NCBI GenBank assembly: GCA_973895155.1
Contig: OZ316891.1
Location: forward strand, 16,061,137 to 16,125,136
DNA: 64,000 nt
DNA from: Marsupella aquatica
Taxonomy: Eukaryota > Plantae > Marchantiophyta
Reading direction: 5' to 3'
Made by a program: the position numbers and the translations under genes. Below the pieces are notes generated by a model. The model was not told the origin of the DNA. It ran no database searches and was given only the letters and a program-made list of their open reading frames with translations. Each line of letters begins with the position of its first letter. Position 1 is the stretch's first letter. Shown piece after piece: positions 4,354 to 54,139 of the stretch.

Positions 4354-4497
4354 AGATAGACTCTACAATTTAGCAGACTGCACAGAAAGTAATATATATT
4401 TAGCATTTAAGGTACAAAGGCATTTAGATAGACTCTACAATTTAGCAGACTGCACAGAAAGTAAAATATATTTAGCATTTAAGGTACAAAGGCATTT
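4354..4497. repeat. Tandem duplication, 2 x 72 bp
   Basis: AGATAGACTCTACAATTTAGCAGAC...AAAGGCATTT starts at 4354 and 4426. Confidence 0.95.
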
Positions 4498-11871: not shown

Positions 11872-12023
11872 AGTTTCATTGACTACAATAGATTGAGTGT
11901 TCTGATGACATTGTGAATGGTTGACTTGAGTCCTGACTTTTTCCATGTCTGTCCATTGTTGTATGACAGGTTCATGTACCTAATCCCTATCCCTTACTTT
12001 CACAGCCTGTATAACTGTCCATC

Positions 12024-13534: not shown

Positions 13535-13723
13535 TGTGACACCGCCGGTACGGTGGGTAATGAGTGATTTGGCCTAACGATGCTTAGCACGCATGTTAGG
13601 GGTATCTTAGGCCGTAATTATTAGCATAACGACAATATTTAGGTAGCCATTATGAGTAGGAAATGATTAGTCAATAAGGGGCATTCGTGTTCGGGCTGGC
13701 GGCGGGTCGCCATTTGCACGTCC

Positions 13724-14486
13724 AAGTACCTTTCCTTTAAATGTTTTTTACCATTTTTATTACTTTGAGGGGCCACGCAAACCCCATGGCCGGGGGGAAC
13801 AAAACAGAAAAACAACCACCATGGCAAGCACAGCAAATCGCCAACACACACCAATGCAAACGGTTTACCAGAAGCACCCATAACAAGTATCCTACCAGCT
13901 ATCTGGCGCAGTAGACCAACCTCACCCCCAAAATATACTTATCCTACAACAATCCAGCAGCCTAACCAGCCTACTATCCCACATTCAGTCAGTCTTGCTC
14001 TATCCTGATGTGATCCAGCAATCCCTACACCTCAACCATGTGAGCCTTTCTTCATTGATGATCTCTTTCACCCGTAACAGCCTAGTGCATCTGCTGCATG
14101 CCGGCAGTGTCAACCCAACCGCAATAACCTGATCCACCGCCTTCGAGAGAGTGAAGCGAATGTCAAATCTCCGGGCCCCGCCCTGCTTGAACATATGCTC
14201 ATTACGTCCCAACCAAATCATCCACAATATCTGGTATAAGACAAACATTTTAACAACCTTCCTATAATCCTTGCGCACCACATAATTAATCATCCCAAGC
14301 AACCCCCCAGAATAGTCCGCAAATATGCCCTCAAAGCTTAGAGAACAGAGCTGCCAACATCGCTGTGCATGTTGACAAGTCAAGAACAAATGTGGAATAT
14401 TCTCTAGTGTGCTTGGACACAGCTTGCACTCACCATTACCTTTACCAATTCTGGCTACCCTAACCCCCGTGAAGAGCCCAGATGTC
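13724..14486 (-). mobile_element. 5'-truncated LINE (L1-like ORF2 zf-RVT C-terminus and 3' UTR)
   Basis: CKLCPSTLENIPHLFLTCQHAQRCW...LWMIWLGRN. AATAAA and an A-rich 3' end on the minus strand. Flanked by a 120-bp direct repeat (13604-13723 / 14487-14606). Confidence 0.85.
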
Positions 14487-14890
14487 ATCTTAGGCCGTAA
14501 TTATTAGCATAACGACAGTATTTAGGTAGCCATTATGAGTAGGAAATCATTAGTCAATAAGGGGCGTTTGTGTTTGGGCTGGCGGCGGGTTGCCATTCGC
14601 ACGCCCGGGTTGCGGGCGTGTAATGGGCCCTCACCTTTCCCCCTCGGGTCCGTATAACAAACTTCGGGAGGCGGCCACTGACACGAGCTGACCCGGACCA
14701 GCGGAGTGGCCGGTACACTGCAAGCGTGAAAGGCTCAGCCTATAAGCGACGAGGAGGCGTTGGGCAATCGACAAGCTCTCAGGGTATAAAAAGGGGGCCG
14801 ATCCTTTGTAGTGCACCAGTTATTTAGTCCACTTGCTAGCTTTGACCCCAGTTCTCTCGCTTATCCTTAGTTGCCTTCTATCTCCTCTGA

Positions 14891-15386
14891 ATGTCGCACA
14901 CAATCCTTTCCAGTTCGGCCATACGATTCTGGACGCAATTCTTGTCTATCGAAGGGCACTTGGCCGACTCATTGAAACACGACAACCCACGCCGATACAA
15001 AATTGAACGCGAATATGAGAGAGCCATCCGCCTAGCAGGTTGCCACCACTATTTCCTTAACTTTGATTACCCGTCCCAGAGCGAGCTTTACCAATCCAAA
15101 GAGATATCAGGGTACTTCTTCAATGGAGGCAAATATATGTCTTCTGGGAGGCACTACTTCGGCTTCCGGACGAGGTCTTCAATATCCCGGGCACGATCGA
15201 CTTACAATGGCACCACTTTGACCACATCCCCGCTCGGGTCTAGGACATCATTAACAGTGAGTCCAGCACTACCCAGTCTACAAGGGTGTCTACAAGGGCA
15301 CCTGTAGAATTTCATGGCAACCGTATCATTGACTACCGGTGCCAGCCCAGCTGTGCCCGTGCTCGCACCAGCACCAGCTCAGGCTT

Positions 15387-15418
<32 letters not shown>

Positions 15419-15897
15419 CCTAGCCAAACCCTGCCACCAGTCGCCCCGCCCATACAGGTGAGATCCGTCATCAACGCCGTAGATCTGAGCGACGACAAAG
15501 AGGCTACGTTACCCCTGTTTAGGCGGCCCAGAGGAGCAAACACTCAGGGAGTCGGGACTACATCGCCCCCTCCCCAGGCTTGGACCCGAGTAGCGGCTCC
15601 AGCAGACAACACGGTGACCGTAGCCACCCCGGCCCCAATACTAACGACGGTGGCACTACCTATACCCAATCGAGAAGATGGGGAGGTGTCACCCTCCCCG
15701 AGCCAGTCTCGGGGAAAGAAGAGGAAGGAATCCGCAGTTGTATCGGGTTACCCATGGCCACGGTAGCCGCAGCCAAGGTGACAATGCACCGCATGGGGGA
15801 GAACGTGCATAAGAACATCCTCCACCCCAAACATGCGGTGTACTTGAAGACTCAGGGGTTTGAGCACCTCGCCTCTCTCCCCTGGAACACCTGCAGG
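14891..15897 (+). pseudogene. LTR-encoded ORF of solo LTR A, 5' part (resumes at 29808)
   Basis: MSHTILSSSAIRFWTQF...GFEHLASLPWNTCR, frameshifted; homologous to 35231-36260. TATAAAA at ~14785. Confidence 0.85.
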
Positions 15898-16139
15898 TAT
15901 GACATGGGTAACGTGTCACTTAACCGAACCCAGGTCGTAGATTAGGTTTTATACGGTCATAGGACCGTAGCCGTAGCGTAGAATAGCACGTATAACCGTC
16001 TATTGCCATTATGAATAGATTAGGAGTAGGTTTAAGTTGACCAAATGATTACAAATTTAGGAGGAGGATTATTACGCGCGACCGAGGTACGATGGCGGCG
16101 GTGGAGTCACTAGAAGAATCCGAGGTGAACTGAGACCGC

Positions 16140-16460
16140 AATATGTGACTCATTTTGGGTCATGTGACTTCATTGTGACTCAACGTGACTTGACCCACGC
16201 TGTGACCCTTGGAGTTGCAAAAGTTGAGACCAAAAAATGGAAGTCACTATTGATACTGGGCTTTGCAACTTGCTTGATACCCATTTGTGACTGATCTGTG
16301 ACTTTATTGTGGAGTCTAGCCTTGTTTCTACGTGACTGCAATATGACTTCAGCGAGTCACATAGTAAGTCACATACATGACTTACCCGCATTCAACAACG
16401 ACTAGCGTGTGACCATTTAGTATCACAGGAGAGACCAATGGAGACCCTGGCCCGTGTCAC
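16140..16460. repeat. CACTA subterminal (T/C)GTGAC(T/C) motif array
   Basis: More than 10 copies in both orientations next to the TIR, as expected for TnpA binding sites. Confidence 0.8.
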
Positions 16461-16961
16461 ACAACAGAACCATTTGGGACTCTATATACTCATGTTTATA
16501 ACTAATAAGGTTCACATGCAAGTTATAACCATGACTAATGAACACAGAGGGACAGTTCATAAGGAGAGAGAGCACTCCACATTACAATACATAGAAACTG
16601 ATGTTCTAACTTTAGAAATATAACACATTGAATACAAGAAATGAACATAGCATGAATGACATCCACATGAAACAAAGCATCATATAAGCAGATCCTACAT
16701 AAAACATTCATAAGAATTAAACACAATCACAATCTTGCTAAAAAATGAAGATCATTTGAATTCCAATGGAATAGTTTACAATGTGATCAATGTAATTCAG
16801 ACAAAATAGGAACTCATAATTGATGACTGCAGGATGAGATAACTGAAAGCACATGCATGATACTATGAATCTCCAAGAGGACATGATTCTTGTACTGCTT
16901 CTTGACATCTAAAATCTACATAACATGACTCACACTACAAACAAATAATGGCATGACATTG

Positions 16962-19900
16962 TTATGGATCCTCTATGAACTTGCTTGGCCATAATACCAA
17001 AGAACCTGCAGCATCTCCAAGTGTCTTTTGAGGAGGATCATCATTTGTGTTTGGAATGGGAAGGACAGCTTTAGGTTTCACTAGTAATGTGACTAACACT
17101 ACTGAATAACTTGGGGGAATCCTCTTGCCATGGAACGTTGTGGAACCAACCTGCACTCTGCCAAATCCTACTCGTGTTCCACTCTCATCAACAGCTAACA
17201 AGCCACTTTGTCCCTCAGCATTAAGTGCTTTCCCCACTTCCACTTTAGATCTTTTTGCCAGCACCGTTCTTGGAGGTTTGTATGAAACCTTTGACGTGGC
17301 TTTGCTCCCACCAGCAGACTTGCTTCGTGTGCGCATGCTTCCTCTCTTCACAGTAGTGAAGCTAGGCTCAGTAAGTTCCTCTGTTAGGACTGTCACAGTA
17401 GCAGGTTCATCACCTGGGAGTGTCATACCAACTAACTCTTTGGTTGGATTTATCTCAACAAGAGGCACACCTGTCATTGAGAATGATACATTCTGCAAAT
17501 CATTTATCTCTGCAATGGAGTCAAGATCTACATAGCATGAATCTGGCTCAATGGTATCATTGTCATGCTTGCTGATATCCTCATTTGCCCCAACATTGAT
17601 ATCATCCACTCCCTTGCCAATGTCATCCTCATCCAAACATGGTTGACTGCCCTCTGTCAAACAAGTTGCTTGTACAGACTGCAACTTTGTTGCCTCTAAA
17701 TTACAGCGAGTATTTGCCAGGTTCTCATATTTCTTCTCTGTAGCACCTGTCTTATTCTCTATGGACACAACAACCACAATATATGTTACTGAAAATAACA
17801 CATTCAACAAACAATGTCAATTCAAACTATACATTTAATAATCATATCCCACACAGTTGTAAAGGCCTTACCTTCAAGCCTACATGTCGTTGGCATGCCA
17901 AAAGAGTGCATCGACTTTGCCACCTCAAGTGGTGATGGTGGAACTCCTGCAGAATTGGAATCAATTTTATCTCTCACCGACACAACAGCTTCCATTAATG
18001 TCTTGAAGTTCACATGGAACAAGTCAATCAATGAATTCAAATGTTCATTGATCTCTGGAAGACATGTTTCGACAGCCTTCAAACGACCACTTATCTCTGT
18101 AAGTGAAGATCCACCTCCCTACATGACACATGGGTATAGGTTCAATCACTCCATATGAAATGTTGGGCAATATATGCACAATCAATGTTATATACAGTGT
18201 ACACCTAAAATTCAACGCAGGTCATTCAATTACCAATCAGAACTCATATAACTTACATGCTTGGAGGATTCAGATGCACCCTCTTGAGCTCGGGTGTTCA
18301 CAATTTTGGCCCTCAACTCTTCTTTTGAAGGGCTTTGCCCCAATTGGGTTTTCTGCACATGCATGGCAAACACAAGTTATCGATCAATATTCAGGGAACG
18401 TACACTAAAAAACAAAGTTTACATGTATGGGTTTACACTAAAAAATAGTACATAGTGTAGCATAAATTACATAGCTAGGCCATTCATTCTTACCAAACGT
18501 TTAGCTGTCGGTGTAGTGCCGGTCCTTCCTGTCAGATTAGGGTTCTGAACACTCAACCTGGCCTCGGTCATCTGTGAACTCTTCTTTTTTGAAGCATCTA
18601 TTACAAAATAAGCTACTAACCTTGCCCACACTTTATCATCACAACTGGCTGGTGGAGGCATATCTGGCTTCTCCCCACCTTCCTTCCAAGCCTTATGCAT
18701 TCTCCACCTCTCTTGCTTGATGATTTTACCTACTGTACTCTCTAGGCAACCTATGTCCACGCCATCATCACTGCCCACATAATTCCATTTGCCAGCAACA
18801 TTTTCACATACAGTCTTCCAATCTTTTAGATGTTGTTTTTTAAAATTAATAACACTCACATCTAACCAACGCAATACTTCAGCTTTCAAATCAGCATGCC
18901 ATCGGTTCTTGCGAGGACACTCAGCATCCACCCATTGTCTCTCATTCAACTTTACGTTCCCTTTCTTTGTCACCTCCCCTCGTGCACTGCTCTCGGTAGT
19001 ACTGGGCGTTGTATTGGCCACCCCTTCATTCACCCTACCTGGGGTTCTGAAGCCACCTGGGAAAATATAATGCCATTCATGCTTGAGAACTACATACAGC
19101 AGAATGGATGACAGCAACATTCAATGCTTCACTTCAAGAAAAATTCTTCAAACATACATACCTGTAGCTCTGCCTGTAGATGCCTGTGCAGGGACTGCAC
19201 TCTGAAATTGTTGCGACCCTGGACCACCTGTCCAGCCTAGTACAGGGGCCGAATGATGTCACTTTCTAGGTATGTGTGTGCAAACATATGTACTGAAAAC
19301 TAAGTACAAACTGTAGGAAAACAACTGAACATTCACCGACATACCTGTCCCCCTTCCGTGCTGCATCTGCATAGGGGCATTAGTGAATACTTGAGTCGAT
19401 GGTTCGACTGTCCAACCTGCACACATACATTTTCTATCATTATACATGTGCAAAATCCCCCCCCCCCACGTGAATGGACTCCAGATATAATGAGTTCTTC
19501 CATTGCTGACAAGATCAGACATTACTTGCCCCTCTTCCAGCGTTTGTAGGTACTGTATTTTGATATCCTTGCCAATTACCTTCACCACCTTCCCAACCTT
19601 GTTCATTCCACGACCCACCACCATCCTCCCAACCTGGTTCAACCCATGTTTGTCCTTGTGGACATTGGAACTGATCATTACTAGCATTTGCCCAATCAGG
19701 TTGGGCAGAATCTGCATGCAATGGTAGGTGGACAGAATTTCATGTTGTCTGAATCCAATACATCCCAAACAATGTCAAAAATTGATATGCAGTCTGAAAT
19801 TCAGGAGTGCCATGCCTTCACAAAGAACTGGCATATAGATATATACTCACATCCCCATGGTTGAGGTGGACGTCCAAACCCATGAGACTGTGGGTTTGGA

Positions 19901-20455
19901 CCTGCTCTGCCTCTACCATGGGCATAACCTAGAGCTTGCCCCCTGCCATAGTATTGGGCACCAGCCTGGGATCTACCACTACTACCACCTCGCCAACCTT
20001 GATCAAAGGTCAGCCCCCCCTGCTGGTATGGTGCATGCAAAGGCTTTGAAGGCAAAACAAAACTGGTAGGACGCTGCATCACATCACCAACTACAATGTC
20101 AAGAACTAAGCAAGGTACATATGTGTAGTACTGAACATATGAAACCTCCAAATAAGAGTTTTTAACTCAAACCTTGTTGGGAAAACTACTTACCTGTTTC
20201 TTTTGGGGCTGCTCTGCAATGTATTCATCTTCATAACCCCCATCCTCATCCATTTCCTCTGGAAAATACTCATCATCTGTATCTTTTTGTCTAGTGTCTG
20301 CACCCACCTGTGCAGCATCCATGTCATCTCCACATTCTGCCATTGTAGGTACCACCTTCTTGCTCAACCTTTCACTCCGACGCACACGCCCAGAGATAGT
20401 GTTGGACACCCTTCTTGCATACTCCTTTCGTTTCTTTGAAAATTCTGTGGTTCTG
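16962..20455 (-). CDS. Multi-exon TnpA-like gene (Ptta/En/Spm-type domain plus C-terminal En/Spm Tnp1-type domain); exon bounds approximate
   Basis: WARLVAYF...KKKSSQMTEAR...NLTGRTG (18467-19120) and VGFGRV...FHGKRIP..YSVVLV...LPIP...TLGDAAGSLVLWP (16962-17810), separated by GT-AG introns. Confidence 0.75.
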
Positions 20456-21044
20456 CAACATTCCAATATGAGAATACAATCACAATTTCAGTGCCACATT
20501 GAACTATTCATGTCACACAAACTCACTGCAGGATCATATTAGGATCCCCAGGAATCCTGCCATCTTGCATTGCATCATTCATTTGATCATCAAGCGACTG
20601 CGGTGATTCTTGTAGCAAGTGGCGAACCTCCTCTCTTTTTCTGCATCAACAATGTTTTAGTCAGGCACCAAAACGCATTGACTCCGATTCAAGACTGTAC
20701 ACGTATCGGATGTGATTGCAAAGACACCCTTTGGCCAAATGCTGATGGTCAAGAGAAAACCATCTGCACTAAGAGCTGAATAGTCAAGCATATGGAAGCC
20801 CCCAAATTCCGAAACGACAAGACCCATGGGGGGCGAAGAATTTACAAAGCCGGCATGGAAGTAAAAGATTTCAGACAGATAAGATATCTGAAGGAGAACT
20901 CTTTGGGAGAAACAATTACATCCATCGTAAAATACACCAAGATTGAAGAAAAACAAGCTGAATAGGCAGATTACAGGAATGTAAAAATTCACATCAGAAA
21001 AGGAATAATATGAGGCTGGCTATAACAACCAAAATAAGATCTCC

Positions 21045-21308
21045 TGACCTCCAGAAGTCAAGGGATTAGCATTTTGGGCCACATTTTCCTTTAGAAATAT
21101 CTACAGCTTGGTTATACACTACATTAGTGTGCGTACAACTTTGTAGACAGGTGACCTCCAGAAGTCAAGGGATTAGCATTTGGGCCACATTTTCCTTTAG
21201 AAATATCTACAGCTTGGTTATACACTACATTAGTGTGCGTACAACTTGGTTATACACTACATTAGTGTGCGTACAACTTGGTTATACACTACATTATTGT
21301 GCATACAG
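21045..21308. repeat. ~107-bp duplication followed by a 32-bp tandem unit
   Basis: TGACCTCCAGAAG... starts at 21045 and 21152; CTTGGTTATACACTACATTAGTGTGCGTACAA x3 at 21213-21308. Confidence 0.92.
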
Positions 21309-22104
21309 CTAGACCGGTTTGTCAATCCTACGAATGCTTTGAAGCTTCATGCCTTCCACTACTTCTAGGAGACTCCTGCAACTTCCACCATCCTGTTGAG
21401 CATCGTGTTCGGCAAGGACCGCATTTGTTGTCTGAAATTTTTGCAGAATTGCACAACAAGACCAACCTGTGATGGCAAAAGGGCTGTGTGCGCGAAGAGT
21501 GTCTAAGTAGGGCACGTTCTTTTCTTCGTCAACCACAGCACCAGGTGGTCCACCATCACTGTACAACATTCTGGTGGCCCTTGGATCATACAGTTCTGGG
21601 TATAGTTATGGTCGCATGCAAAGATCTTGGACCCCTGGCGTTGAAAGAGAGAGTGAGAGAGATCCGATTGCGCCCTTACGGCATTCTTTCATTTCATTCC
21701 TTCGGTGCCTAATCGATTATCCCACTGCCGCCCACCCATCAACGTGACACCAATAATTTTCTCACATCATTGCTGCACTGATTCACAACACTATGCTATA
21801 ACTACAGAGGGGGAGACGACAGACGGAAGCAATCAAGAGCACCTGGGGGACCGTGGTGTCTCTCTCACCATAGTAACCGAGCTTCCAATCCTGCAGCGTG
21901 TTTGGACAAATATACTAAACAGAGGTAGTCATGTTTTCATTAATTTGGATGAAAAGGCTCTAGAGCAGCAACCACATAAGATTAACGGAGCGTCTTCATT
22001 GTAAAGATTCTTTCCGTCCTCCAACATAGCATTCATCTATACGTTAAAGAAGAAAGAACAACGAGAATTTCAGTGAGGTGAAATAGGAGGACAAGGATCC
22101 ATAG

Positions 22105-22450
22105 GCAAGTTTGCAAAGGCCTTTGCCACCGTCACACCATCCTTCTTAACTTCACGATAACCAAAACTTTGCTCTGTACCACATTTCGACCTTGGAAAAG
22201 AGTTACAGATTCACAAAGCAATGAGTGATTGGTACAAGGATGTCACGCACCTACGACACACCTAGACATAATTTTATGAGGGACGGACAATAATTACGTT
22301 AAGCAGATGTCTTCTACACCTTTGGGCCCATGGTAACCTTCTCAGCATTCGGTAATTCATCAACACCTTGGAGTGTAAGAGCCCTCGAATTGCCTCGACT
22401 CCAAACCTGGTATCCTTCGATCCATAAATTTGCACCAGTTTCGACCTGCT
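22105..22450 (-). pseudogene. HSP60: Captured, decayed mitochondrial chaperonin-60 exons
   Basis: YGSKDTRFGVEA / RALTLQGVDELPNAEKVTMGPK [intron ~22192-22319] GRNVV / EQSFGYREVKKDGVTVAKAF matches the GroEL/Cpn60 N-terminus, with frameshifts. Confidence 0.85.
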
Positions 22451-22924
22451 GCATTCTCAACTCCGAATCAGACCAACACAAGAGCATCTGTCTGGTAACT
22501 GCGTTAAGGACAAACGCTCAGGGTCAATTGCTACGATCTAAAAACATAGTACAGATGGACGGAGAGTTACAATTCACCTCCAATGCTGTAATTCGAGAGT
22601 ACGAGGTTGTGAACACTACTTCTTCACATGCTTCCTAGTTAGTATAGTACGACTATGTCTGCTAGCGACTCTACAATCTGCCGGATGGATAAAATCTACC
22701 GGCAGTGGATGGAATCTTTGGAATTGGGAACTGAATAGTCGAATCTATCCAGGACCAATTCAATAGTGAACTATTTGGACAGGAGGGTCCGTAGTGCACA
22801 TAGATACTGGAGTAACCTCACTTCTCATCGCACTGTTGAACGAATCAAGAAGCATAAAATTGCCAACTTCAAGAGAAAAAACACACGACCTACTTCATGG
22901 TTGACTGAAAGAAAAGCCACCCAC

Positions 22925-23037
22925 CTGCCTGGCCGCAATTTGAGTGTAGCGGAGAAATTTGTGAATGTTCCTGTACTCTCTGGAGACAAGGATTCACCTC
23001 GCGTCCAATTATCAAACGACCCCATCACTGTGACGTC
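22925..23037 (-). pseudogene. PTST1: Captured CBM48 exon of a PTST1-like (PROTEIN TARGETING TO STARCH) gene
   Basis: AG|DVTVMGSFDNWTRGESLSPESTGTFTNFSATLKLRPGR|GT resembles the PTST1 CBM48 exon. Possible decayed upstream exons (NVKTEL ~23535) extend toward ~24560. Confidence 0.75.
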
Positions 23038-42000: not shown

Positions 42001-43699
42001 GGGTCTGTGCTTAGTCAGCTTGATGCGGACGCGATCACCCCATCTACTTTGCTAGCCGTCAATTATTCGCAGCTGAAAAAAACTATTCCCCCACGGATCG
42101 AGAGGCACTGGGCATAATCTACTCATGTAAGAAGTTCTGACACTATCTGCTTGGCTACAAGGTCATCTTCCACACGGATCACGACAGCCTGAAGTACATG
42201 GTCAACAAAGCAGACGTAACGGGACGGATAGCCCGTTGGGTGCTACTTCTCCAGGAATTTAACTACGAAGTTCGGGTTCGGCCAGGAAAGGCACACCTCA
42301 ATGCCGACTTCTTTTCACGGCTGGACGGCATACCAGTCGATCAGCCAATTGATGATATTTTTCCGGATGAGGAGTTGTTCCACGTAGGGGAGGGGACACC
42401 AACATGGTACGGCTCAATAATCACCTTCCTTTTAATGGGCCGCATCCCTGACGGCATCAATCAGGAGACCGCCGCTGTGTTTTTACGGAAAGCCGGGCCT
42501 TACGTCATGATACAGGGTCACCTACATAAGGAAGGTATTAATGGGAAGTTACGATGTTGCTTAGAGTATAAGGAGACGCTTATCGTGATGCGGGCCCTAC
42601 ATGAAGAAGAAGCTGGAGGCCATTTTGCGGCGGTCACGACAGCCCAAAAGATTCTGGACTCGGGGTATTGGTGGCCTACGTTGCATCGGGATGTACAGCG
42701 CTTCATTAAGGGCTATGACTTGTGTCAGCGAGTTGGGGCCCCGAGGCGGGCTCATCATCACCCGCTCACATCTGTGCTTCCATTGGCACCATTCGAAAAA
42801 TGGGGAATTGATTATATCGGGCCGTTTACTCCCGTTACCCGAAGGCGAAGATGCAGGTACATCCTACTAGCTATTGATTACTCCACCAAGTGGGTCGAAG
42901 CGCGGGCTACGGTAAAGGACGACGCCGCAACCAGTGCCAGATTCTTATACGAACAGATTTTCACCCGATTCGGCCCGCCCTTAGAATTGGTAAGCGACCG
43001 TGGAACCCACTTCCTCAATGACACCGTAGCCCAGCTTACAGAGCGTTACCTAGTCAAGCACCGCAAGACTACCCCGTATCATCCTAAAGCCAACGGGATG
43101 GCGGAGAGAGCAAATGGTATCATTGGGAAGATCCTCAACAAAACTGTAGCTGCGCACAAAACGGATTGGGATGATAAGTTGTATGCAGCGGTGTACTCGT
43201 ATAATCTAGCTTACAAAACTACTACGAGTCACAGCCCGTACTTTCTTGTGTTCGGCCAACATTCGTTGGTGCCCGTCGAGTTTGAAGTACACACTCCATG
43301 GGTCAGCATTCGGGATCGCTTACCTGAATCTGAAAGTTCGTCAGACCGAGCTTATCAGATTGAAGCCTTGGAAGAAGCACGGCTACTAGCAACTCGACAC
43401 GCCGTGAAGAAATAGGCAACTTCGAAGAAGCAGCACGACAAAGGACTACGGAGGGTCGATGTCGTGGCAGGCGATCTAGTCCTTCTGTACGATAGTAGGT
43501 ACATGCAATTTCCAGGGAAGCTTCATACCCGGTGGTTAGGGCCCTTCCTTGTCAATCAGATCTACCGTAACGGATCTTTGGAGCTTGCGACGTATGCCGG
43601 CGATTTACTCCCCACGCGAATCAGCTACGATCGTGTAAAAAAGTACCACCATCAAGATGACGACGCCGAGAGTGATGTTCGCGAGGACGCTTCACAATT
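39098..43699 (+). pseudogene. gag (C-terminal part) and pol, with stops and frameshifts
   Basis: Two Zn knuckles (CYNCEKPGHFAREC 39191, CQVCKTEAHSTANC 39275); protease VLVDGGA (40040); RT DYRKLN / YSGYNQI / FIDD (41536); RNase H FHVYVD...RWVLLLQEF; integrase WGIDYIGP...SDRGTHF...NGMAERAN; WLGPF motif. Confidence 0.95.
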
Positions 43700-44174
43700 A
43701 AGCAGGGAGCTATGTGACGCCGCCGGTATGGCGGTTAATGAGTGATTCGGTCTAACTGCGCTTAGCACGCACGTTAGGAGTGTCTTAGGCCACTATTATT
43801 AGCATAATGACAGTATTTAGGTAATCATTATGGGTAGGACATCATTAGGCAATAAGGGGGAGTTCAGGTTTGGACTGGCGGCGGGTTGCTATTCGCACAC
43901 CCGGGTTACGAGCGTGGAGGGGCCCCTCCCTCGGGTCCGTATAACAAACTTAAGGAAGCGGCCACTGACACGTGCTGACTCAGACCGGCGGAGTGGCCGG
44001 TACACCACAAGCGTGAGCGGTTCAGCCTATGGGCATCGAGGAGACGTCGGGGGATCGACAAGCAGGTATAAAAGGGGAGCCAACCCTTTGTAGTGCACCA
44101 GTCCATCAGTCCATGTGCCAGCTTCGACCCCAGCTCTCTCGTTCGCTCTAAGTCGCCACTACTATCTCCTCTGA

Positions 44175-47100
44175 ATGTCGCACACGATCCTCTCCAGCTC
44201 GGCCATTCGATTCTGGATGCAGTTCCTATCTACCGGAAGGCACTTGGCCGACTCATTGAAACACGCCAACCCGCGCCGATACGAAATCGAACGCGAGTAC
44301 AAGAGAGCCATCCGCCTAGCAGGACGACAGGCCTCATTCACATTTGGAGGACCCAAAAGGAACCTCACACTCAAAAGTGACCATAGTTTATTATGCTTTA
44401 GGATATCATTTTTAGGGTGTAATGAGATGATATAGAAAATTTGATGTACTATACTTAATAAACATCCTATAGGTTGGTAACATTCATTAAACTATCTAGC
44501 ATTTTAGACTTTGAAGCTTTCCTTATATGTCCTTCAAAGATTGATAAAAGGACTTGTCACGCAACGGGTCACATCATTTCAGGACTCAAAAGGACTCTAA
44601 AAAATGCATTTTAGATAATGAAATTTTACCAAAGCATGCATACTAATAGCATAATCTTATATTTCAAAACTTAAATAGTGACACACAGTAAACCTTTATA
44701 TACAGGACAAAAATAATCAGTAATTTTGGCTTATTTAGGGCCATCAATAACAGGATCCCTTAAAACAGTTGAAACTTTGATGTATCTACACGGTGAGGTA
44801 GGTTACACCATGCAAAATAGTCTTGTGAAAAAATTAGACTTAAATGTCTTGAGATAAAATCATGATGAACCTTTTTCCATGTTACGAAAGTCATTTTTCA
44901 CTAAAAAAGCATGTTTTTGAGTCCTGAAAGTGGTTCCTGCAAGGTACACCCAATTGTGAATGAGGCCGACACCACTACATCCTTAACTTTGACTACCCGT
45001 CTCAGAGCGAGCTTTACCGACCAGCAGAGGTATCTGGGTACTTCTTCAACGGAGACAAATATATCGGTTTCTGGGAAGCATTGCTTCGGCTTCCGGACGA
45101 GGTCTTCAATATCCCGGATACGATCGACTTGCAACGACATCACTTCGACCACATCCCTGCTCAGGTTCGGGCTATCATCAACAGCGAGTCCAGCACTACC
45201 CGTTCAACAAGGTCGTCTGCACTCGCTTCAGAGAACTTCTACCAGCACCTACAGAGCTTCATGGGAACTCGGCCATCAACCAACATGGCCAACTCAGTCG
45301 TACCCGTACCCATACCCGTACCCATACCCGTACCCGTACCCATACCCGTACAACCTCAGGCTCAACCTTAGGCTCAGCTTCAACTTCAGCCTCAGCCGCA
45401 GCCTAGCCAAACCCCACCACCGATCGCCCAGCCAGCACAAGTACGCTCCGTTATCAACGCTGTGGATCTTAGCGATGACGACGAGGCTACCCCACCCTTG
45501 ACCAGGCGGCCCAGAGGAACAAGCGCTCAGGGGGCCGACTCTATATCGTCCCCACCCCTGCTCTGACCCCAGGAGCGGCCCCGGCAGACAACATGGTGAC
45601 CGTGGCCGCCCCGGGCCCGTTACTAACGGCAATGGCACTACCCAGGCCCGATCGGGAGGATGGGGAAGTGTCACCTTCCCCGAGCCAGTCACGGGGGAAG
45701 AAGAGGAAGGAATCCGCCACTGCATCCGGGTTACCGTTGGCCACGGTAGCCGTAGCCAAGGTGACGATGCACCGCATGGGGGAAAACGTTCACAAAAACA
45801 TCCTCCATCCCAAGCATGCGGTGTACCTGAAGACTCAGGGATTCGAGCACCTCGCCTCCCTCCCCTGGAACACTTGCAGGTACTACGGGGAGGACATGAC
45901 AGAGTTCCTCAGGAATTATGACGACGTGCATCAACATACTCGGCTGCGGGGAAGGAGTATGTCCCTCACAGAAGAACGGCTCAGGATGATCTTCGGGTTA
46001 CCCGAAGGTGACCATCGAGTTGAATCACGGGCTCCCGGGGGCAAGGGAGCCAAGTACCAATCTTCAAGTTTTCCCTCAGAGGGAGCAGTGGACAACGGGT
46101 TCGTGATGAGGACCTGCCTCATCCCTGAGATAGCTGAGCGACTGGAGTTCCAGAGGTACGCCCTCCACATGATGGAACCCCGGGGGGAGATCTCCGCCGC
46201 CCAGGTTATCCAGGTCGAGAACTATCGACCTAGGAAGTGGGCGTCGTACTTCACTAAGAAATTCCATGAAGAGATGGAGTGGCGAAGGAAGACGCTGTAC
46301 ATTGGCGGGAAGGCGTATTTCGCTAGCCACATCGAGATCATTCTTGAGTGGTACGCCCGGTTTGATCGACGAACCCTTCCCCGTGTCAACGTTACAAAGC
46401 TGGTCTCAGCTAGGTGGGTTTTCCCAGCCTTGGAGAGACGGCCCCAACCCGAGGCCCAAAGTCCAGCGGACACGCCAGCTTCACCCACCCCACCTCCACA
46501 AGTAGCTGTAGTCGTAACCGAGGAGGTATCTGATGGGTTGGGTGTCGCAACCTTTGATGCGACCCAACAAGCCGGGCTAAGTACAGAAGTCGGTACGGCG
46601 GAGGTCTTACCCGAGCCCGGGTCTCCCAAAGACCCACCGGTGGCTATTCCGGAGAACCGGACATTGCTACAGGAGGACACTCCAGCCCCTTCCAACGTTA
46701 CGTCCCCAGGGCTGGACGTCACTGCCCCGGCCCCCGCGCGTGTTGACGTCTGCCCGTGCCCAACTCCGGACAGGCACAACCTGGACCACCCGGAACTCTT
46801 CGTATCGGGTACATTTTTGAACGGGCTTCTGGGAGATTTCTCTCATCAAATTGCTCGGGATACCGGGGAGTTCATGGCCCGGAAGGTAGCCTGTTTCTTC
46901 AATCAGGAGTTGGTTGCCGCAGTAAAGGCAGGTCGGGCCCAGTCAGAGGCCCTTCAGAGGATAGAGCGGTACCGGGTGGAGTCCATGTACCTAAAGAATG
47001 AAGTTGCGGTTCAAGAGGCTGAGCTTCTACAACTACGACCCAAGGTTGCAGCCGCCGATGAGTTGTTAGCAAAGGCGCACGCTCTTACCGCCCTAGCCGA

Positions 47101-47494
47101 ACAGGCCAAAGCTGGGAACGAGGCCAAGATTACATGACTCCGGAACCAGATTGACAGTTTGAAGAATCAAATTGTCACCTGGCAGAAAGACCTGGAGGAG
47201 GCCGAGGAACGGGCCCAGCAGGACACGGCGGAGATAGCCACGCTGCAGGCCGAGGTGGCGTGGCTCCAAACCGAGGCCGAGAAGCAGGACCAGCTGGCGG
47301 GTAAACTGACGAGCGACGCCCAGCAGCTGGAGGAGGCATGTCAGGAGGCAGCAGAGGAGACGGACGCGGCGAGGTGAGAGAACAAATCTCTGCTGGACCA
47401 GGTCCAGCTCCTCAAGGCGGACAATGACAGGCTTCGAAGGCAGCGGGATGGCCGCTCCCATTCGGGCGGCTCTGGCAAGCATGCCAGGCATTAG
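44175..47494 (+). pseudogene. LTR-encoded protein, 3' LTR copy, interrupted by a MITE
   Basis: MSHTILSSSAIRFW...; 514-aa open stretch at 45593-47137; C>T-derived stops. Confidence 0.88.
44330..44967. mobile_element. MITE, 638 bp, 4-bp TSD
   Basis: TIR GGCCTCATTCACATTTGG / CCAATTGTGAATGAGGCC; TSD GACA. The empty site is visible in the 5' LTR (~35377-35392). Confidence 0.93.
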
Positions 47495-48396
47495 CAGCGG
47501 AGTAGGAATAGATTAGGATTAGGATTGGCTTAGTCAGGCTCTTGGGACAGGCACCTGCCTTAGGTACATCAGCGCTGCCATGCTGTCCAGCCTGCGTAGA
47601 TTAGGATCTTCTAATAAGACACAGCCGTTTTCCGGCCTGACTGTCAGCTTAGTTAGGACCTTAGTCAGCGAATCTTCGGCGAGAGGACACCCCGTCCCTC
47701 GGCCCTTAGTATTTAGTGCACCCCTCGGTAGAGACAAGGGGGGTTTTTAGTTTCAGAGTTGGACGTCCGCGGTATATGTGGGGAGTCCCGACCTCTGGGA
47801 ATGAAAGAGTACCAAGGGGGGGGGGTAGGACTAAGCTCGCCGGGTGAGTGCAGAGCCGGGCTCCGTTGTAGTGTGCACCCTCGGCCTTGAACCTGTTCAT
47901 TCTGGGGCTGTCGGGTCAACTAAGTGTACGCATATGTTCTCTTTGTAGTAAAATCCTTTCCCATCATTTTCCTTTGTGTAAATCGAGATTGTATGCATGT
48001 CCGCGTGTATGTGTGTGGGTTTCTCGTATATGGGTGGCAGCGCCAGGCCGAACGCACTACCCGAGACGTGCACAGGGTGCAGCCTGTGGGTAAGTGGTTG
48101 CGAGCACGGGTTGAGGACCTGTATCATCGAATCCGGATCGAAGGCGGACAGCACGAAGGCTTAGAAGCCCTTAAGCCGGGGTCGATCCTGCTATCGACTA
48201 AGGTACGTTCCGACGGTGGAACACAAACCATACCTAGGAGGTGGTTGTATTTAGCAGTATGCGCACTTAGCGCTAGTTTATGAGAATAAGGTGCATTACG
48301 TGCTTCCCTTCCTGCCCGAACCCTCAGATTTACGAGGGATGTGCCAGTCTAAGCTGAAGTCTGAGTTAAGGCCGAAGCCGACGACGTGATAGTGGC

Positions 48397-49429
48397 CCCT
48401 TAGAGGAGCACACATGTTCTTTTGGCTTGGAAGTACTGGTTGGAGCAGGTACTGAAGGGTATGACAAGATTGTAAGTACTTTTGAGCAGTATGCCAAAGG
48501 CATGTATGCTAGAGTAATCATTGTCAATCCTCTGCATGCAAAGATGCCTAAAGTGGCATTGTGTGTTGTACCAAAATGTAACAAGTTTAAAGCTCCCTAG
48601 GTAAGAGAGCATTGGGTGCAGCTAAAGTCCATGTGGGACACACGTTGTAGAGACAGTGTTGGTCCTTTGTTGGGCCATGCTAGTGATGGTGATGCTTGTC
48701 GTAGGAAATTGATGATGGAAGATTATACTGCTATGAATGGTTCCTTTCCTAGGTATAGTGTAGGATGGGTTGGGTGACAATACTCAGTGTCCATACTTCC
48801 AAATGGAGATTTATATGGTTTTGGAGACCAAGACCCACCTCACAATGGCAAAAAGGCAATTAACCCATTGGACCGAGTGTGTGCTATGTTAGTTCTTGGT
48901 GATCAACATGCATCTTTGTCATATGTCACATATATTTATAACCATTATGCAATTCATGAGCATGGTTTGCATTGGGATGATGTGAATAGGACATATAGAC
49001 AAAACTGGGCTGGCCCACAACAAATAGCTTCCAAGAGAGTGCAGGCCTGCCTGCAGCATATGTATGAGCGACGAGATGTTTGTCATGATAGAAGCTTTGG
49101 GACCATGATATACTTGGAGGTTTGTGCAGACTACATAGATATTTTCTTCTCTGTTAAGCATGACCTAAGAACCCGTGTTATCTTGGCATCAAAGGTATCT
49201 TGGTTCTTCCGATTGTGGAGGCTATGGTTGAGGTATGGTGATCATTTTGTGACAAGAAATGCTGGATCTATCACAGAGGAGAACATGATTTCTGTGCATG
49301 CTTTCCATGATATCAACATGTCTTGTCATTTTGTAGTATTGTTAATTTGTGCCTTTCAAGACAAGTTCCCATATCTAGAAGTTCCATTTCTTGTTGGGAT
49401 CAGATTGTTGTGAGATATTTTCAGCAAGG
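48397..49429 (+). pseudogene. P-like transposase, segment 3 (catalytic core)
   Basis: IIVNPLH...GHASDGD(48685)ACRRK...GDQDPPH(48832)NGKK.INPL...RQNW...GSDCCE(49412)I-FSK. Confidence 0.78.
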
Positions 49430-52400
49430 TGTGGTGCGTCCCATGGCTCCCCAAACCCAAGAAAACCCCCTTGCTCAAGCCGATTCCCGCAGGTTTCGTC
49501 CTTGGCGAGGCCGTTTCTGTGGCTTAGCGGCATGGGACGCTGCTAACTCTCCTTCTACTACTATTAACATTTTACACACATATACTGGACAGATCCTTCA
49601 TCGGGTCATGAGATACTTAGCCGGCCTATTCTAGGCCTTCCCTTGTATTCCTCTCCTGGTCTTCCATTAGGTATGTTTGGATTCCGCCGCCGGAATGATC
49701 CCCAATTGGCTTGGTTAAGCCGCTAAGACCTCTCTCAGCTCGACACATCCAACTCTCACTCCCTTGCTACTTCCCTTCATTGATGTGGGCACTCTTCACA
49801 CAAGTTAATGCGACACACAAATAGCAAAATGACTCCTTCTGACTGAGTTATACCATGCACTTGCCATACAAACAGTACATCTCATACACAAGCTCTGCGA
49901 ACTAAGCCGTGAGGCCAACTCTATTCAATTCTTAGGCATGAGGAAACATGAATATACACAAGGGTCACTGTATAACTAACCGAGAGCTTCTCTTACTACT
50001 TGATCCCAGCCTTGCTGGTGCAACTAAAAACTTGTTAAAGAAGAGGCCCTGGACTCCCGCTGCCCAGGTATTTATCCTGGCAGCGGATCTGTCCAAAACT
50101 TTGCTGCGTAAGCTTAATCTATCCTACCTGTAATCTACCTAACTGTACAACGAGGCAAGAGCACAAGTGTTGCTCTTACTAGAGGATCCGCCATCCCACT
50201 AATCTAAGTGTTAGGGCTGTCTCCTAGTCTTGATCCTAATCCTAAACTTGGAGATCTGAGCCCGCCCTGCCCACTCACGCCTCCTACCTCCACGTCCACC
50301 CTTCCTTAAAGGAACGATGCCCTTGCACCGTCACAACACTGGTGGCGGATCCTCAATGGATGCCACCAACGCTTCCCCCGCAGCCACTACCGTCGGTCCG
50401 TCCTCTGACAGATTACCTGCCCCGGACCGAGTCAACTCTTCATCGGCTTGACTGGGTCCACCCTCGGCTTTGGCCCCAGCATCGGTTACGGCCCTCGATA
50501 CGGCTTCGGCCTCCCCGGCATGTTCTACTGGAGGATCTGGTATCTCGGCTTCATCAATAGCTATCTCGGCCTCGGCCTTGCCATCCCCACCTTTTTCAAT
50601 AGGTGGATCTACTGCCGTAATCATGCCGGAGGTTGGTGCCGGGTTGACCTCCTGGGTCACAACGGCTTGGTAAGCCGTATAACTCCCAGACCCAAAAGGT
50701 TTCCGCTTCTTCTTCTTCCCTGTTTCGGTAGCTGGTCCCTTCCCCTTGCTACCTACCTCCGGCACCGGGGCGTGTGTCTCGGCTTGTGTTTCGGCCAGTA
50801 CCACTCCTGGTAACGGAGTTCCCACAATTGGACCAGATGAAGCTAAGCACTTAAATACTGCGGCCTATTTCTTCAGCTGCTCCGTTGGGTTGTCGGCCCG
50901 TTGCTGTAAGTTCTCCATCTTTCTGGTGGTTTCCTCCAACTCCTCCTGGGCTTCCTCCAGGTCCTTCCGTCCCTCCTGCAGCTCCTTTCTGGCTTCCTCC
51001 AATTCCAATTTTAAGGTAGCCCTCTCCTCCTGGGTTGCTCTTAGCTCCTTGTCGAGCTCCGCTATGACCTCAGACTCCATCTTATTCATCTTGGCATAAG
51101 TCTGGTTGAGCTGGTCATCCTTCTCACGCAGGTCGGCCTTGAAGCTGGCCATCAGGGATGCAAGCTCCTGCTGCAGCGCAATAATCCCTTGATAGGATTT
51201 CCCTAACTTGGCCTCCTTTTGCTCAAGGGCTCCACGGATATCCTTGAGCTCTCCTTTCAATGCCCTCTCCCTTCTCTGAGTCTCCGCCATGGCCCGGTTG
51301 TTGGTGGTTATGTGGGCCTCCTCTACGTCCCTCAGCTCTTGCTTCCACTTTTCCCTGTCCTTGACCGCGCTGGCCAACTCTCCTTGGGTCCGAGTCAGTT
51401 TATCCTTGATAATCAATCTGCCAGACTGAGCGGCATCCAATTGTCCTTGCATGATGTTTAGCTCATGCCGCTTAATCCGCAGCTCATCTTAGGCTTTCTT
51501 GGCCACCTACAGGTCTTCCACCTTGGCTTCCATCTCCCTAAGCTGCCGGATGACCTCGTCCTTCTTGCTTCTCTCCAAAGCCACCGCTTCTTCTAATCGG
51601 TGCTTCTCCAACATCTCCCTCTGGAAAAAAGGTCCCTGCTCCAACTCCTCCCCAAAGATGCTGAGCGCCAGGTCCCCACACATCTCCCCATACTCCATGG
51701 CTCTATCTTTAGCATAGGTGGAGTAAGTAGAAGTCATCGGCATCAACCACCTTGGCCTCTATTCCCAAGCCGCCTTGCGGATTTCTTCTACGGTGGCAAG
51801 AGGGTTGCTTCTTTTTTCGGCAAGCCGCCTGATGTCCTCCGGCCAATCTCCTCTTGGTAAATCTTTCTCCCTAGCCAGGGCTGCTTTCTCTTCCTCCCTA
51901 AGTCGCTCCTGAAATTCTTGTGCCGTCTGCTTTATGCCGTCAAAGCTCAGGGAGCAACCTCTGGTGGGGGAGACTCGGGGCTACTCTGCTGGGTGGGGTC
52001 CCCTCGAACTACTCTTGGAAGCGTGAAGATAAATCGGCCACAGGTCCTTACTCCTGGAACATGATGATCCGACCCATAGCCGGAGTTATCATTGCTGTAG
52101 TCCTCTACTGCCTCCTCCACTGCTTGGACTCCTGGCTTCCCCCTCTGTTCCCCTGGTCCTGCCGTGAAAACGGCCTCACAGATCACGGGCTCTTGTTCCT
52201 CCTCTGGTTTCCAGTCCTTTCCCTCTGCTTTCCGCGGGAAGGAGCCTTAGGCTGCTCTGCCTCCGATTCAGGGCTTGAGGCTCCCACATACATTCGAACT
52301 CCAGGCTTGTGTTCCGGCCTCCTGCTCTCCTTGGCTCCAGTAAAGGGGTTTTCCCTCCTGAGTTGGCTTAGGCCGGCCTTTGGGGCAGTGTCCTGTACCG

Positions 52401-54139
52401 GTGCCGTTGCCATTGCTGGTGCCGTTCTCTCCTTCTCCAACAATTTCAGCAGATTCTGCATGCCTGATTGTTGCATCGGCAAGTCTTCTTTGCTTGGTCG
52501 AAACACCTGCTCGATCGTAGGACTGGCAGGCTGGTTGGGCTCTTCTGTTGCCGGCCTCTGCTCCGGAACCTCCTCTGGTGCCCTTGCCGATAGGGGAAGT
52601 ACTGGGGCAAAGATTTGACTTCTGGCATACCGGCACAACAGCGGCATGTGATAGCCAAGATGGGACACGCTTCCCACGCCGATCACCTGCTGTTCCTCCT
52701 TCAAGATCTTCTTCAGTTGGTTGAGGAGGTACCCGTTGTAATCTCGGCTTGGGTCTGGCCTTTTTGCCAGGTAGACCTGAGCCTTGCCAATCTCTGCCCT
52801 CGGCAAGTTACAATGCATGGTCACCCGCAAGAAATCGATCATCTCTCCAATGTGCGGGTTGGTGCAGGTGTTCCGGAAGAAGCCATTCTTCGTTGATGGT
52901 CCTGGGAACGACCGGAACTCCTTGTCAGGTAAGGTCTTCCTGGTATCAACCTTGGTCTTATTACCCATCGGCAAGCCAAACACCTCGGCAATCACCCGGG
53001 GAGTGAGATAGAAATCCTTCCCATACACCCTCGTGGAATTGGTCTCGGGTTCCCATGATCCCACAAATTCTAATAAGTTTGAGTCCGGCACCTCTAGCTT
53101 CAGCCATGGTAATCTTACGAAGGCTTCCAAGCCGGATCCGGCCATGAAGCCTTGGTACTTCTTGGTCTGCATGGCCGTAAAGCATGCATCCTCCTCCCGT
53201 GCAAAATGTAATTGCACTTCCTCTGGTAGGGTCGCCGCCCAGCCTTTCCAGGTGTCATCCTTTGTTGGAATGGCATTGATGGGATCGACCACCTCCTCTT
53301 TGGCTTCTCCCTGCCTCCTATTCTGCTGCTCTACTGGCTTCCTTGGTGCCGTTGACCTCATTCTTTTTGCTGGGGTGGCCTCTTCATTGTTGTTTCCTTT
53401 CCTCTTCATCTCGGCTACCGTGGATGTTTCTCCTAGCACAGTTGCCTTTGTCCACCCCTCCGTGCTACCCTTCAACTCCCAGTGCGCGTCGTTGCAGCGG
53501 TTGATGGCTTCCCAAATGCCGACAATTCTGTCTTTGCAAAACAGAAGGTCATCAAGCTGATTGGCAGTAGGAGTCCACAAGAACTCGGCCTTGATGAGTT
53601 CTCCTCCTAAGAAGGCGAGCTTCTGCAGCTCCCACAGTTGAGTGAGCTCTTGCCATTCTCGAGCTGCTCTCTCTGATTCTTCGTCCTCGTAAGTCCTAAT
53701 GTACTCAGTTGCCCATTTGAACAGGCATCCCCAAAAATGTGCCGCTTGATTGACGTTGCTCATACCTTGCTTGACTCGATCGTTGGTATCTGCTCCCGCC
53801 CCGAGTGCTTGCCTAAGCAACTGACAGTAGTTGGCCTTCTGTAGTTGTCTGCCCAGTTCGTGCTTGCAAATGAGCCACCATTCCTCGTGAGCGGTCCTTA
53901 CCCTTCTCCTCCTCTGGTCTTTCCTCCCGTTGGTTACCCCTAGCCGCCGATGCTTAGCGCGCCCTAACCCTAATCGTGTTCTCTCCCCCAGCGTTCTTAC
54001 CTCCGGTCACGGCCCGGGTTCCATAGTCACCCTTAATTGTTTATATTTTCCTTGTTTTTGTTACTATACTAATGTGTTTATAGGGTATATCTCCGTTTCC
54101 CCACTTAACTGGCCTAGTGATTCCTGGCTAGGCATCACA
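49430..54139 (-). mobile_element. Solo LTR D, 4.7 kb, third gene-containing family
   Basis: On the minus strand TGTGATGCC...GGGACGCACCACA. Perfect TSD CAAGG. The host frame rejoins as FSKVGGMSGNERNY. Confidence 0.92.
50331..53763 (-). pseudogene. LTR-encoded PMD-like coiled-coil protein (LTR D), decayed
   Basis: MSNVNQAAHFWGCLF...GLEAFVRLPW...EFVGSWEPETNSTRVYGKDFYLTPRVIAEVFGLPMG...NGFFRNTC...PRAEI, then coiled-coil fragments at 50865-51746. Confidence 0.82.

Follow-up and report, generated by a model that had tools for sequence, protein, structure and literature searches.

A long gene inside the LTRs of a Ty3/gypsy family and two probably related families in Marsupella aquatica

Gene-bearing LTRs in the window

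The window, a 64,000-nucleotide stretch of Marsupella aquatica contig OZ316891.1, contains five gene-bearing LTRs belonging to three families (A, B and D), with LTR lengths of 3.9–4.7 kb and 5-bp TSDs, jointly occupying 21 kb (Table 1). Family A is anchored by a decayed Ty3/gypsy element (34764–48391) with RT-RH-INT order between direct LTRs, TG..CA ends and a perfect TSD (GTGGC/GTGGC, 5/5). As the same sequence flanks the decayed gag-pol, lying directly after integrase and a purine tract, A is a proven LTR, and its gene sits wholly within the LTR, at both ends of the element. The tract (AAGCAGGGAGC, just before 43713) is short, and the solo A flank is likewise purine-rich by chance. The two LTRs diverge by 3.2%, and this copy is missing the 5′ LTR tail and the PBS. 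Pol runs into the purine tract and 3′ LTR without space for a further ORF between them, and none was seen at the 3′ end of the internal region. A profile scan found RT_RNaseH followed only by Integrase_H2C2, with no aRH (the Tat clade mark); there is no chromodomain (the chromovirus mark), pol stopping at the LTR after a GPF-type motif (last stretch read by eye).

Table 1 Positions of LTRs, genes, motifs and insertions in the window
Feature	Positions	Strand	Details
Family A solo-type LTR	13535–33681	+	TG..CA; TSD GGACT/AGACT (4/5); mosaic of A2 subfamily and patch; split by LINE fragment and LTR B
LINE 3′ fragment (zf-RVT)	13720–14487	-	120-bp duplication; inside LTR A leader
5′ part of A2 ORF	14891–15897	+	N-domain, linker, core start; cut by B
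Family B solo LTR	15898–29802	+	TSD GCAGG/GCAGG (5/5); 3853 bp own sequence; inside A ORF
CACTA element nested in B	16108–26156	.	TSD AGT; weak Transposase_24 match on minus strand
B ORF	26502–28817	+	771 codons; one internal stop; N-domain, linker, core 27225–27809, Pro-rich linker, coiled coil ~28200–28715
Tail motif in B	29603–29631	+	
Patch from neighbouring 5′ LTR and adjoining downstream sequence	~29950–31765 (left edge approximate)	+	93–100% identity
A2 linker, coil (broken) and LTR tail	31763–33681	+	
Tail motif in A2	33498–33526	+	
5′ LTR of full A element, tail missing	34764–37938	+	TATA-like box 35123; ORF 35231–37875 (stops and one frameshift)
LTR-like sequence X, TG-starting, different from A	37939–39130 (right edge approximate)	+	26-bp tandem array; stands in place of the LTR tail, the PBS and the start of gag
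Decayed gag (zinc knuckle)-PR-RT-RH-INT	39130–43712	+	purine tract 43700–43712 abuts 3′ LTR
3′ LTR of family A	43713–48391	+	4045 bp plus 634-bp MITE-like insertion (44330–44963); ORF from 44175; core 45773–46366; coil to ~47490
Tail motif in A 3′ LTR	48208–48236	+	
Family D solo LTR	49430–54139	-	4710 bp; TSD CAAGG/CAAGG (5/5); landed in host ORF
Tail motif in D	49668–49695	-	
D ORF	50331–53763	-	~1140 codons, interrupted by stops and frame breaks; N-domain, core 53202–52612, linker, coil ~51900–50870, low-complexity tail

An earlier note on this DNA had described one TSD-flanked LTR of each family lacking gag-pol. Coordinates and TSDs were borne out for all three (A 4/5, B 5/5, D 5/5), and their spans hold no gag-pol match (27 window ORFs scanned). 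The statement fails for family A as a whole: the A protein placed at 45593–47137 lies within the 3′ LTR of the decayed full element. Termini are TG..CA except in B, where TA..TA is expected from C-to-T decay; B measures 3.85 kb after subtraction of its 10-kb CACTA insertion. At the D insertion site the host reading frame continues across the empty site, and the D edge is sharp and of high depth in 4/4 DNA runs, 19 contigs exiting into unlike flanks (agreement 0.38). No PBS occurs among the 24 loose ends listed at the A and D ends, a further 222 lying beyond the listing.

The note had also raised internal-deletion derivatives bounded by short LTRs as an alternative for B and D. Neither carries short terminal direct repeats, and both share the 3′ LTR tail motif of A, which on sequence grounds identifies them as solo LTRs, not deletion derivatives. 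That they are not LTRs of gag-pol elements but independent non-autonomous units, or deletion derivatives with short LTRs now decayed, is quite improbable: the 64-kb window holds no internal region, gag-pol partner or PBS for B or D, and the D end yields no PBS among the loose ends listed, but terminal direct repeats are absent, layout and tail motif match the proven LTR, and the 5-bp TSDs accompany TG..CA ends.

The solo A copy is a mosaic. Its ends and 4/5 TSD fit a single LTR, with a middle patched from the neighbour: the identity profile gives an older subfamily, A2 (76–92% to the full element), interrupted by a ~1.8-kb patch and resuming at 31763. Identity reaches 100% over 31303–31752, including 281 bp of non-A sequence, suggesting gene conversion or an assembly chimera. 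A two-LTR deletion derivative spanning 13535–33681 was rejected, the duplicated parts being just 81% alike.

Homology and selection among the encoded proteins

The ORFs of A, B and D are 770–1140 codons long, filling ~60–75% of the LTR. Their ~195-residue cores share 23–39% pairwise identity (A–B 39%; A–D 26%, BLASTP E 2e-22; B–D 23%, E 3e-20), with scores reached by 0/500 shuffles in all three pairs. The gene is, by sequence, homologous across the families, as had been proposed, and 26 invariant columns agree with the core motif quoted earlier. Between families only 20–34 bp pieces of DNA align, in keeping with the description of the DNA as barely alignable. Of the wider shared layout claimed for the proteins, part stands. 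An N-terminal FW motif is present (AIRFWTQF, ALGFWTLF, AAHFWGCLF), but the domain around it is clear for A–B (0/500 shuffles), weaker for A–D (1/500) and not significant for B–D (19/500). Long heptad regions are likewise present in the proteins, but in this copy frame breaks put the D coil into a different frame from the core, and with borderline likeness to the A and B coils (1/500 and 8/500 shuffles) it is not demonstrably homologous. All three proteins have basic NLS-like clusters; transmembrane-like stretches are absent from 9/9 pieces (best 19-residue hydropathy 1.43).

Comparison of A1 with A2 gave dN/dS of 0.17 (0.07–0.33) for the N-domain, 0.14 (0.06–0.27) for the pre-core and 0.03 for the core start. 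Mismatches in the ORF concentrate at codon position 3 (14/11/27, 8/6/24 and 53/40/87 by position), unlike those in leader and tail (21/20/22 and 67/76/62). These patterns uphold the earlier claim of conservation by selection: the gene has, judging by its substitutions, evolved under purifying selection in A. The linker-plus-coil value of 0.32 is inseparable from decay by dN/dS alone, because the same estimator yields 0.40 (0.24–0.75) for plain post-insertion decay. C-to-T changes between the two A LTRs amount to 5.9% at CG, 4.1% at CHG and 0.6% at CHH, and all five gene-bearing copies are interrupted, with CG/CHG decay. Silencing pressure on the LTRs, as read from these signatures, is real.

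Searches for related sequences and folds

The core has features that we take to liken it to the PMD/Athila/Transposase families: a helix with EF..N/W, a β-hairpin, LT..I..FGLP.G and a later F...H..P..EI. The resemblance to PMD, ATHILA ORF1 and Transposase_32 proposed in the earlier note gained no Pfam support, with no match to PF10536, PF03078, PF20167 or PF04195 at E ≤ 10 from the three whole cores or 15 sub-stretches. AlphaFold models of the core, from 3- and 6-row alignments, both place a helix, β-hairpin and helix before a helical block, at pLDDT values (44.8 and 37.2) too poor for fold comparison. The first of them, at this quality no fold test, gave no match in BFVD at E ≤ 0.001, none in the PDB by Foldseek, and a best Z of 4.1 in VIA (rmsd 3.5, 68 aligned). 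A PDB profile search returned two chance rows only, and Rfam had no match in 26000–55000. Word searches of a 5.8-billion sequence set found no homologue (209 candidates for the B core, 7994 for a three-way profile run on longer proteins, 220 for the D core at E ≤ 10), nor did those of metagenome, viral and prokaryote contigs; since they require common exact words, these negatives say little below ~35% identity. PMD membership is thus unproven; our tentative reading is an accessory gene of PMD/Athila-ORF1/Transposase_28 type that moved into U3.

Layout of the LTR gene and its possible role

A tail motif, TTCC-RRCGGY-GGAA..TACCTA, has four occurrences in the window, one per LTR tail for the four tails; because the pattern was derived from these very LTRs, its recovery in 0/100 shuffles is no independent test. 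TATA-like boxes lie ~650–685 bp from the 3′ end in 4/4 tails, followed in the usual order by AATGAA-like motifs within the last 700 bp. The clearest TATA (TATAAAAGGG) is an upstream box, 108 bp 5′ of the ATG in A; the downstream box is TATTTA in A and B. U3/R/U5 borders drawn from such features are motif-based. The layout agrees with the earlier description of self-contained gene cassettes, each with a TATA-like box, an ORF and the LTR's own putative promoter/poly(A) region. Their spreading as solo LTRs is not supported, because solos have neither PBS nor PPT and all window copies are broken and methylation-decayed.

Comparable accessory ORFs are common in plant gypsy elements, and all those we found described lie in the internal region. 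Their commonest domains are PMD, Transposase_28 and Athila ORF1 (PMC6317226); in Retand, TRP28 is combined with Smc-like coils (PMC11963269). Those of non-chromovirus Ty3/gypsy elements (Ogre, PMD PF10536; Retand, Transposase_28 PF04195 with Smc coil; Athila, ORF1 PF03078) resemble ours as selected ORFs with globular domain, linker, long coil and no assigned function (PMC6317226, PMC11963269 and PMC7264820). They differ in being internal, either ahead of gag or in the stretch from pol to the PPT, and so lost on solo-LTR formation, whereas here the ORF is inside the LTR; nor do the A, B and D cores match their domain profiles. Retrosat2/RIRE3 and Ogre share LTRs of 3–5 kb, many solo LTRs and an extra ORF (PMC3485330, PMC6317226), but their ORF0 lies between 5′ LTR and gag-pol. 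Phygy/Selgy non-chromoviruses, compared with family A by description, likewise have a polyprotein that takes up the whole internal region as far as the 3′ LTR and show neither chromodomain nor aRH, but are described as short and without extra ORFs (PMC6317226).

In our literature search, no plant LTR with a gene inside it came up. Retroviruses offer a parallel: MMTV sag lies in U3, nef and foamy bel overlap it, and the accessory gene is duplicated with the LTR. Those are animal viruses whose genes encode ~300 aa or merely overlap U3; the proteins are unrelated to ours, which span 770–1140 codons in a retrotransposon LTR.

Tentatively, we favour a reading that is possible rather than probable: the LTRs A, B and D come from three Ty3/gypsy families related to one another and hold a selected accessory gene, likely in U3 and likely under its own promoter, whose predicted product would be a nuclear coiled-coil oligomer that binds its own family's DNA and counters silencing as VANC does. 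DNA binding, oligomer state and anti-silencing role are suggested purely by analogy. VANC is reported to strip methylation from its own family (PMC5735166) and to resemble the PMD protein MAIN structurally; models make coiled-coil pentamers of both VANC and the Athila domain (PMC13547354 for resemblance and models). MAIN/MAIL reportedly act against Polycomb and bind DNA motifs (10.1101/2024.09.27.615353). The likeness of VANC (from VANDAL, a MULE) and of MAIN/MAIL PMD proteins is one of proposed action, as element-encoded, coil-oligomerised nuclear anti-silencing factors (PMC5735166, PMC13547354, 10.1101/2024.09.27.615353). They are angiosperm DNA-transposon or host genes, likened to the A, B and D proteins by analogy and not by sequence or fold. 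Tandem repeats are frequent among VANC targets, whereas these LTRs showed no tandem target array specific to their family, which counts against the favoured reading.

Under the favoured reading, the gene would have been captured once into U3 in a common ancestor of A, B and D, as the common position and tail motif suggest. Reverse transcription would give two gene copies per new insertion; LTR–LTR recombination would then remove gag-pol and keep one copy between the upstream TATA-like box and the LTR's poly(A) region, so that a young solo LTR could supply protein in trans for as long as it escapes methylation and mutation. Selection would work via replicating full elements, solos being leftovers and not vehicles. 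A bolder version, which we hold doubtful, has an old plant Ty3/gypsy clade moving a PMD/VANC-fold anti-silencing gene into U3, the host's main route of LTR-element removal, recombination to solo LTRs, leaving self-contained cassettes in their thousands, each able to express a counter-silencing protein that acts in trans. If true, VANC would have its first counterpart in a retrotransposon and gypsy PMD-A a relative outside the angiosperms, and the gene would bear on whether host MAIN/MAIL arose by domestication from retrotransposons.

The protein might instead serve the replication cycle, by exporting or packaging RNA, by bringing the integration complex into the nucleus or by tethering integration to chromatin. 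Purifying selection and NLS-like clusters fit this equally, the integrase has no chromodomain, the LTRs here are nested in other repeats, and such roles have been proposed for plant extra ORFs (PMC7264820); we judge it unlikely, given that the ORF has its own upstream TATA-like box, suggesting expression apart from gag-pol, and that the nearest architectural analogues of known function are chromatin factors. An envelope-like or movement protein is very improbable: sense orientation, a place downstream of pol in genomic RNA and a long coiled coil recall the env-like ORFs of Athila and Bagy2, but the pieces scanned have no transmembrane-like stretch and the basic clusters are of nuclear type. 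Were the upstream TATA the main promoter, R would be ~3 kb and the genomic RNA would begin with the ORF as its first cistron, making it a 5′ ORF of Ogre/Retrosat2 type lying in the repeat rather than an independent U3 cassette. The clarity and position of that box, and the TATTTA form of the downstream one, speak for such an arrangement, which is nonetheless improbable because the tails keep their motifs in normal order and strong-stop DNA would have to reach ~3.7 kb, an unusual length.

By lying inside the LTR, a gene is present in double dose and persists when a solo LTR forms, altering what removal of an element means. Having the same protein with different LTR DNA, the three families offer a natural specificity test of the anti-silencing idea. 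With standard LTR finders and gene callers, the solos would be overlooked or taken for unknown genes. These LTRs are also very deep in the DNA runs, a depth that is no copy number; together with their share of the window, it suggests that they may form a large fraction of the genome.

Family A and the solo LTRs B and D

Family A, a Ty3/gypsy family and one of three divergent families considered here, proves that the gene-carrying repeats are LTRs. In its full element (subfamily A1), the integrase is followed by a short purine tract and then, directly abutting, by the 4,045-bp 3′ LTR, leaving no internal extra ORF; it is inside the repeat, at both ends, that the long ORF lies. These LTRs differ by 3.2% over 3,169 aligned bases. 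The 5′ LTR lacks its final ~830 bp, and neither the PBS nor the start of gag is left; X, a different sequence, stands in their place from 37939.

Features of the stretch, in window coordinates
Feature	Position	Strand	TSD	Content
LTR A span	13535–33681		GGACT/AGACT	
LTR B	15898–29802		GCAGG/GCAGG	
LTR D	49430–54139	−	CAAGG/CAAGG	
Family A full element	34764–48391		5/5	Decayed gypsy; zinc knuckle, RT, RNase H, integrase
X	37939–39130; 31485–31765			Fourth TG-starting, LTR-like sequence; 26-bp tandem array 38307–38480
CACTA element	16108–26156		AGT	10 kb, inside B
CACTA right-end copy	10209–11555			1.35 kb, 95% identical to the element inside B
Further CACTA-type start	10124			
BRCT/PHD ORFs	2197–5592	−		Twin BRCT domains (E 2.5e-13) adjoining NSD-type PHD fingers (E 5e-5), among repeats
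ORF run	59832–62665	−		One weak N6_N4_Mtase match (E 3e-4, below cut-off), no other family
MITE-like insertion	44330–44963			634 bp, AT-rich, in 3′ LTR ORF; inverted ends GGCCTCATTCACA
Direct repeats	8734–8958; 9561–9782			225 bp, 88% alike, 600 bp apart
Open frame	12015–13310	+		431 aa
Open frame	48778–49413	+		211 aa
Small mobile piece	34177–34524			348-bp insertion between solo A and full element; absent from contigs of 3/4 runs

The A, B and D spans have the ends that the earlier note had assigned to them, with duplications of 5 bp. B, a solo LTR, splits the reading frame of A, and the sequence on either side of it corresponds to the uninterrupted site of other A copies; D interrupts a host ORF whose frame runs on across the site. 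Depth at the D edge rises more than tenfold in four DNA runs, and 19 contigs of run X1 exit that edge into dissimilar sequence, with an agreement of 0.38. A genuine terminus present at many insertion sites should behave in this way. Without its CACTA element B measures 3,853 bp; D measures 4,710 bp. A search of both for short terminal direct repeats found none in either, which removes the note's own refuting case, that B and D are deletion derivatives bounded by short LTRs. Its suggestion that solo LTRs are gene cassettes, possibly spreading a factor, is not supported as stated: they have no PBS or PPT and are unable to spread by themselves.

The A span is a mosaic. Its background, the older subfamily A2, shares 76–92% identity with the full element when compared in 150-bp steps. 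It is interrupted by a patch (~29950 to 31765) with 93–100% identity to the 5′ LTR next to it, including 281 bp of X at 100%; A2 then picks up again, duplicating 1.1 kb. Either an ectopic conversion of recent date or a chimera in the assembly would account for the patch. All gene-bearing LTR copies (5/5) are broken by stops, frameshifts or insertions. The B ORF has one internal stop, where nearly all aligned contigs of two runs differ from the window copy, so this break is peculiar to that copy.

Homology of, and selection on, the encoded protein

The gene lies within the LTR, is homologous across the families and has evolved under selection. A common protein, as the earlier note had proposed, is borne out for the ~195-aa cores of A, B and D, which are homologous by shuffle tests and BLASTP. 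Local alignments of the cores give identities of 39% (A–B), 28% (A–D) and 26% (B–D), with z of 31–63 and 0/500 shuffles reaching the score of each pair; BLASTP matches the D core to A at E 2e-22 and to B at E 3e-20, and 26 columns are invariant across all three. The remainder of the layout described as shared stands in part. The N-domain preceding the core is clearly similar between A and B (0/500 shuffles), more weakly between A and D (1/500) and not significantly between B and D (19/500). A pre-coil motif is common to A and B (3/1000) and not to D (385/1000 and 80/1000), and the D coil, beyond frame breaks, bears a borderline likeness to those of A and B (1/500, 8/500).

Selection on the protein, likewise suggested in the note, is supported by low dN/dS between A1 and A2 (0.17 for the N-domain, 0.14 pre-core and 0.03 at the core start) and by an excess of third-position differences, which each of the three ORF segments shows and both non-coding segments lack. 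Linker plus coil gives 0.32, with post-insertion decay at 0.40 by the same estimator. Conservation is highest at second codon positions (58, 55 and 48%) and lowest at third positions (40, 34 and 31%). Stop-free runs of 546–607 codons exceed the maximum of 200 shuffles (231–338).

Affinity, origin and possible role

The observation of gene-carrying LTRs is real. In the literature covered, the main texts of mostly open-access papers, we found no report of an ORF inside a plant LTR. Genes in the U3 of animal retroviruses are a precedent. Ogre, Retand and Athila carry extra ORFs with PMD (plant mobile domain), Transposase_28 or Athila ORF1, which either precede or follow the polyprotein (PMC6317226, PMC7264820, PMC11963269), and Retrosat2 has its ORF0 outside its 3.2-kb LTRs (PMC3485330), whereas the A, B and D ORF lies inside the LTR. 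Nothing decisive came from PMC3601003, PMC12885004, PMC10508981, PMC7156037 or 10.64898/2026.05.04.722472.

A likeness to PMD, ATHILA or Transposase_32 was not borne out by Pfam: whole ORFs, the three cores and 15 sub-stretches gave no match to these or to Transposase_28, and protein searches and contig scans, which depend on exact word matches and are weak under roughly 35% identity, returned no homologue. Both predicted structure models have pLDDT <45, and fold searches, with the first model only, gave nothing informative. The motif order and the predicted helix, β-hairpin, helix start of the core resemble those of the PMD/Transposase_32 type. This likeness is a lead rather than a test, and we lean slightly towards the core being kin to that fold group.

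B and D are arranged like A: a leader of 0.4–0.55 kb with a TATA-like box, then the ORF, then a tail of 0.9–1.0 kb with a second TATA-like box 646–685 bp from the LTR end. The motif TTCC-RRCGGY-GGAA..TACCTA occurs four times in the window, one per LTR tail, a pattern fitted to these same four tails. That B and D are something other than LTRs of gag–pol elements is very improbable, and a long-R layout, with the ORF at the head of the genomic RNA, is improbable. A single capture of the gene into U3 would predate the family split; each insertion would then yield two gene copies, and LTR–LTR recombination would leave one, between an upstream promoter and the LTR poly(A) region.

By analogy, the protein may tentatively be read as a nuclear, oligomeric, family-specific counter-silencing factor, because its nearest architectural analogues act so. 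VANC, a VANDAL-encoded factor, demethylates its own family (PMC5735166) and is structurally like MAIN, and both it and the Athila domain have been modelled as coiled-coil pentamers (PMC13547354); MAIN/MAIL combine motif binding with opposition to Polycomb (10.1101/2024.09.27.615353), and PMD-A is gypsy-encoded in angiosperms (PMC5418596). Basic clusters lie upstream of each core. An action in the replication cycle is the less likely alternative to counter-silencing; an env-like role is barely credible, and a search of the A, B and D protein for a transmembrane-like stretch found none.

Setting and neighbouring features

The window is repeat-dense eukaryotic DNA with LINE, CACTA and Ty3/gypsy pieces. 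C-to-T differences between two sister LTRs affect 5.9% of CG (51/859), 4.1% of CHG (32/786) and 0.6% of CHH sites (11/1983), a pattern that is the signature of plant-type methylation. By composition and element type, the host might be a non-seed plant.

X seems to have no long ORF, is deep in DNA runs and matches, over 37 bp, the TATA-proximal hairpin of A2 (38971–39006 vs 33007–33042). The BRCT/PHD ORFs may be transposon-borne chromatin-reader genes, and the ORF run with the N6_N4_Mtase match may be a methyltransferase-carrying element. The two open frames, in the repeats hosting A and D, have no Pfam match; by eye they are zinc-finger-like and transposase-like.
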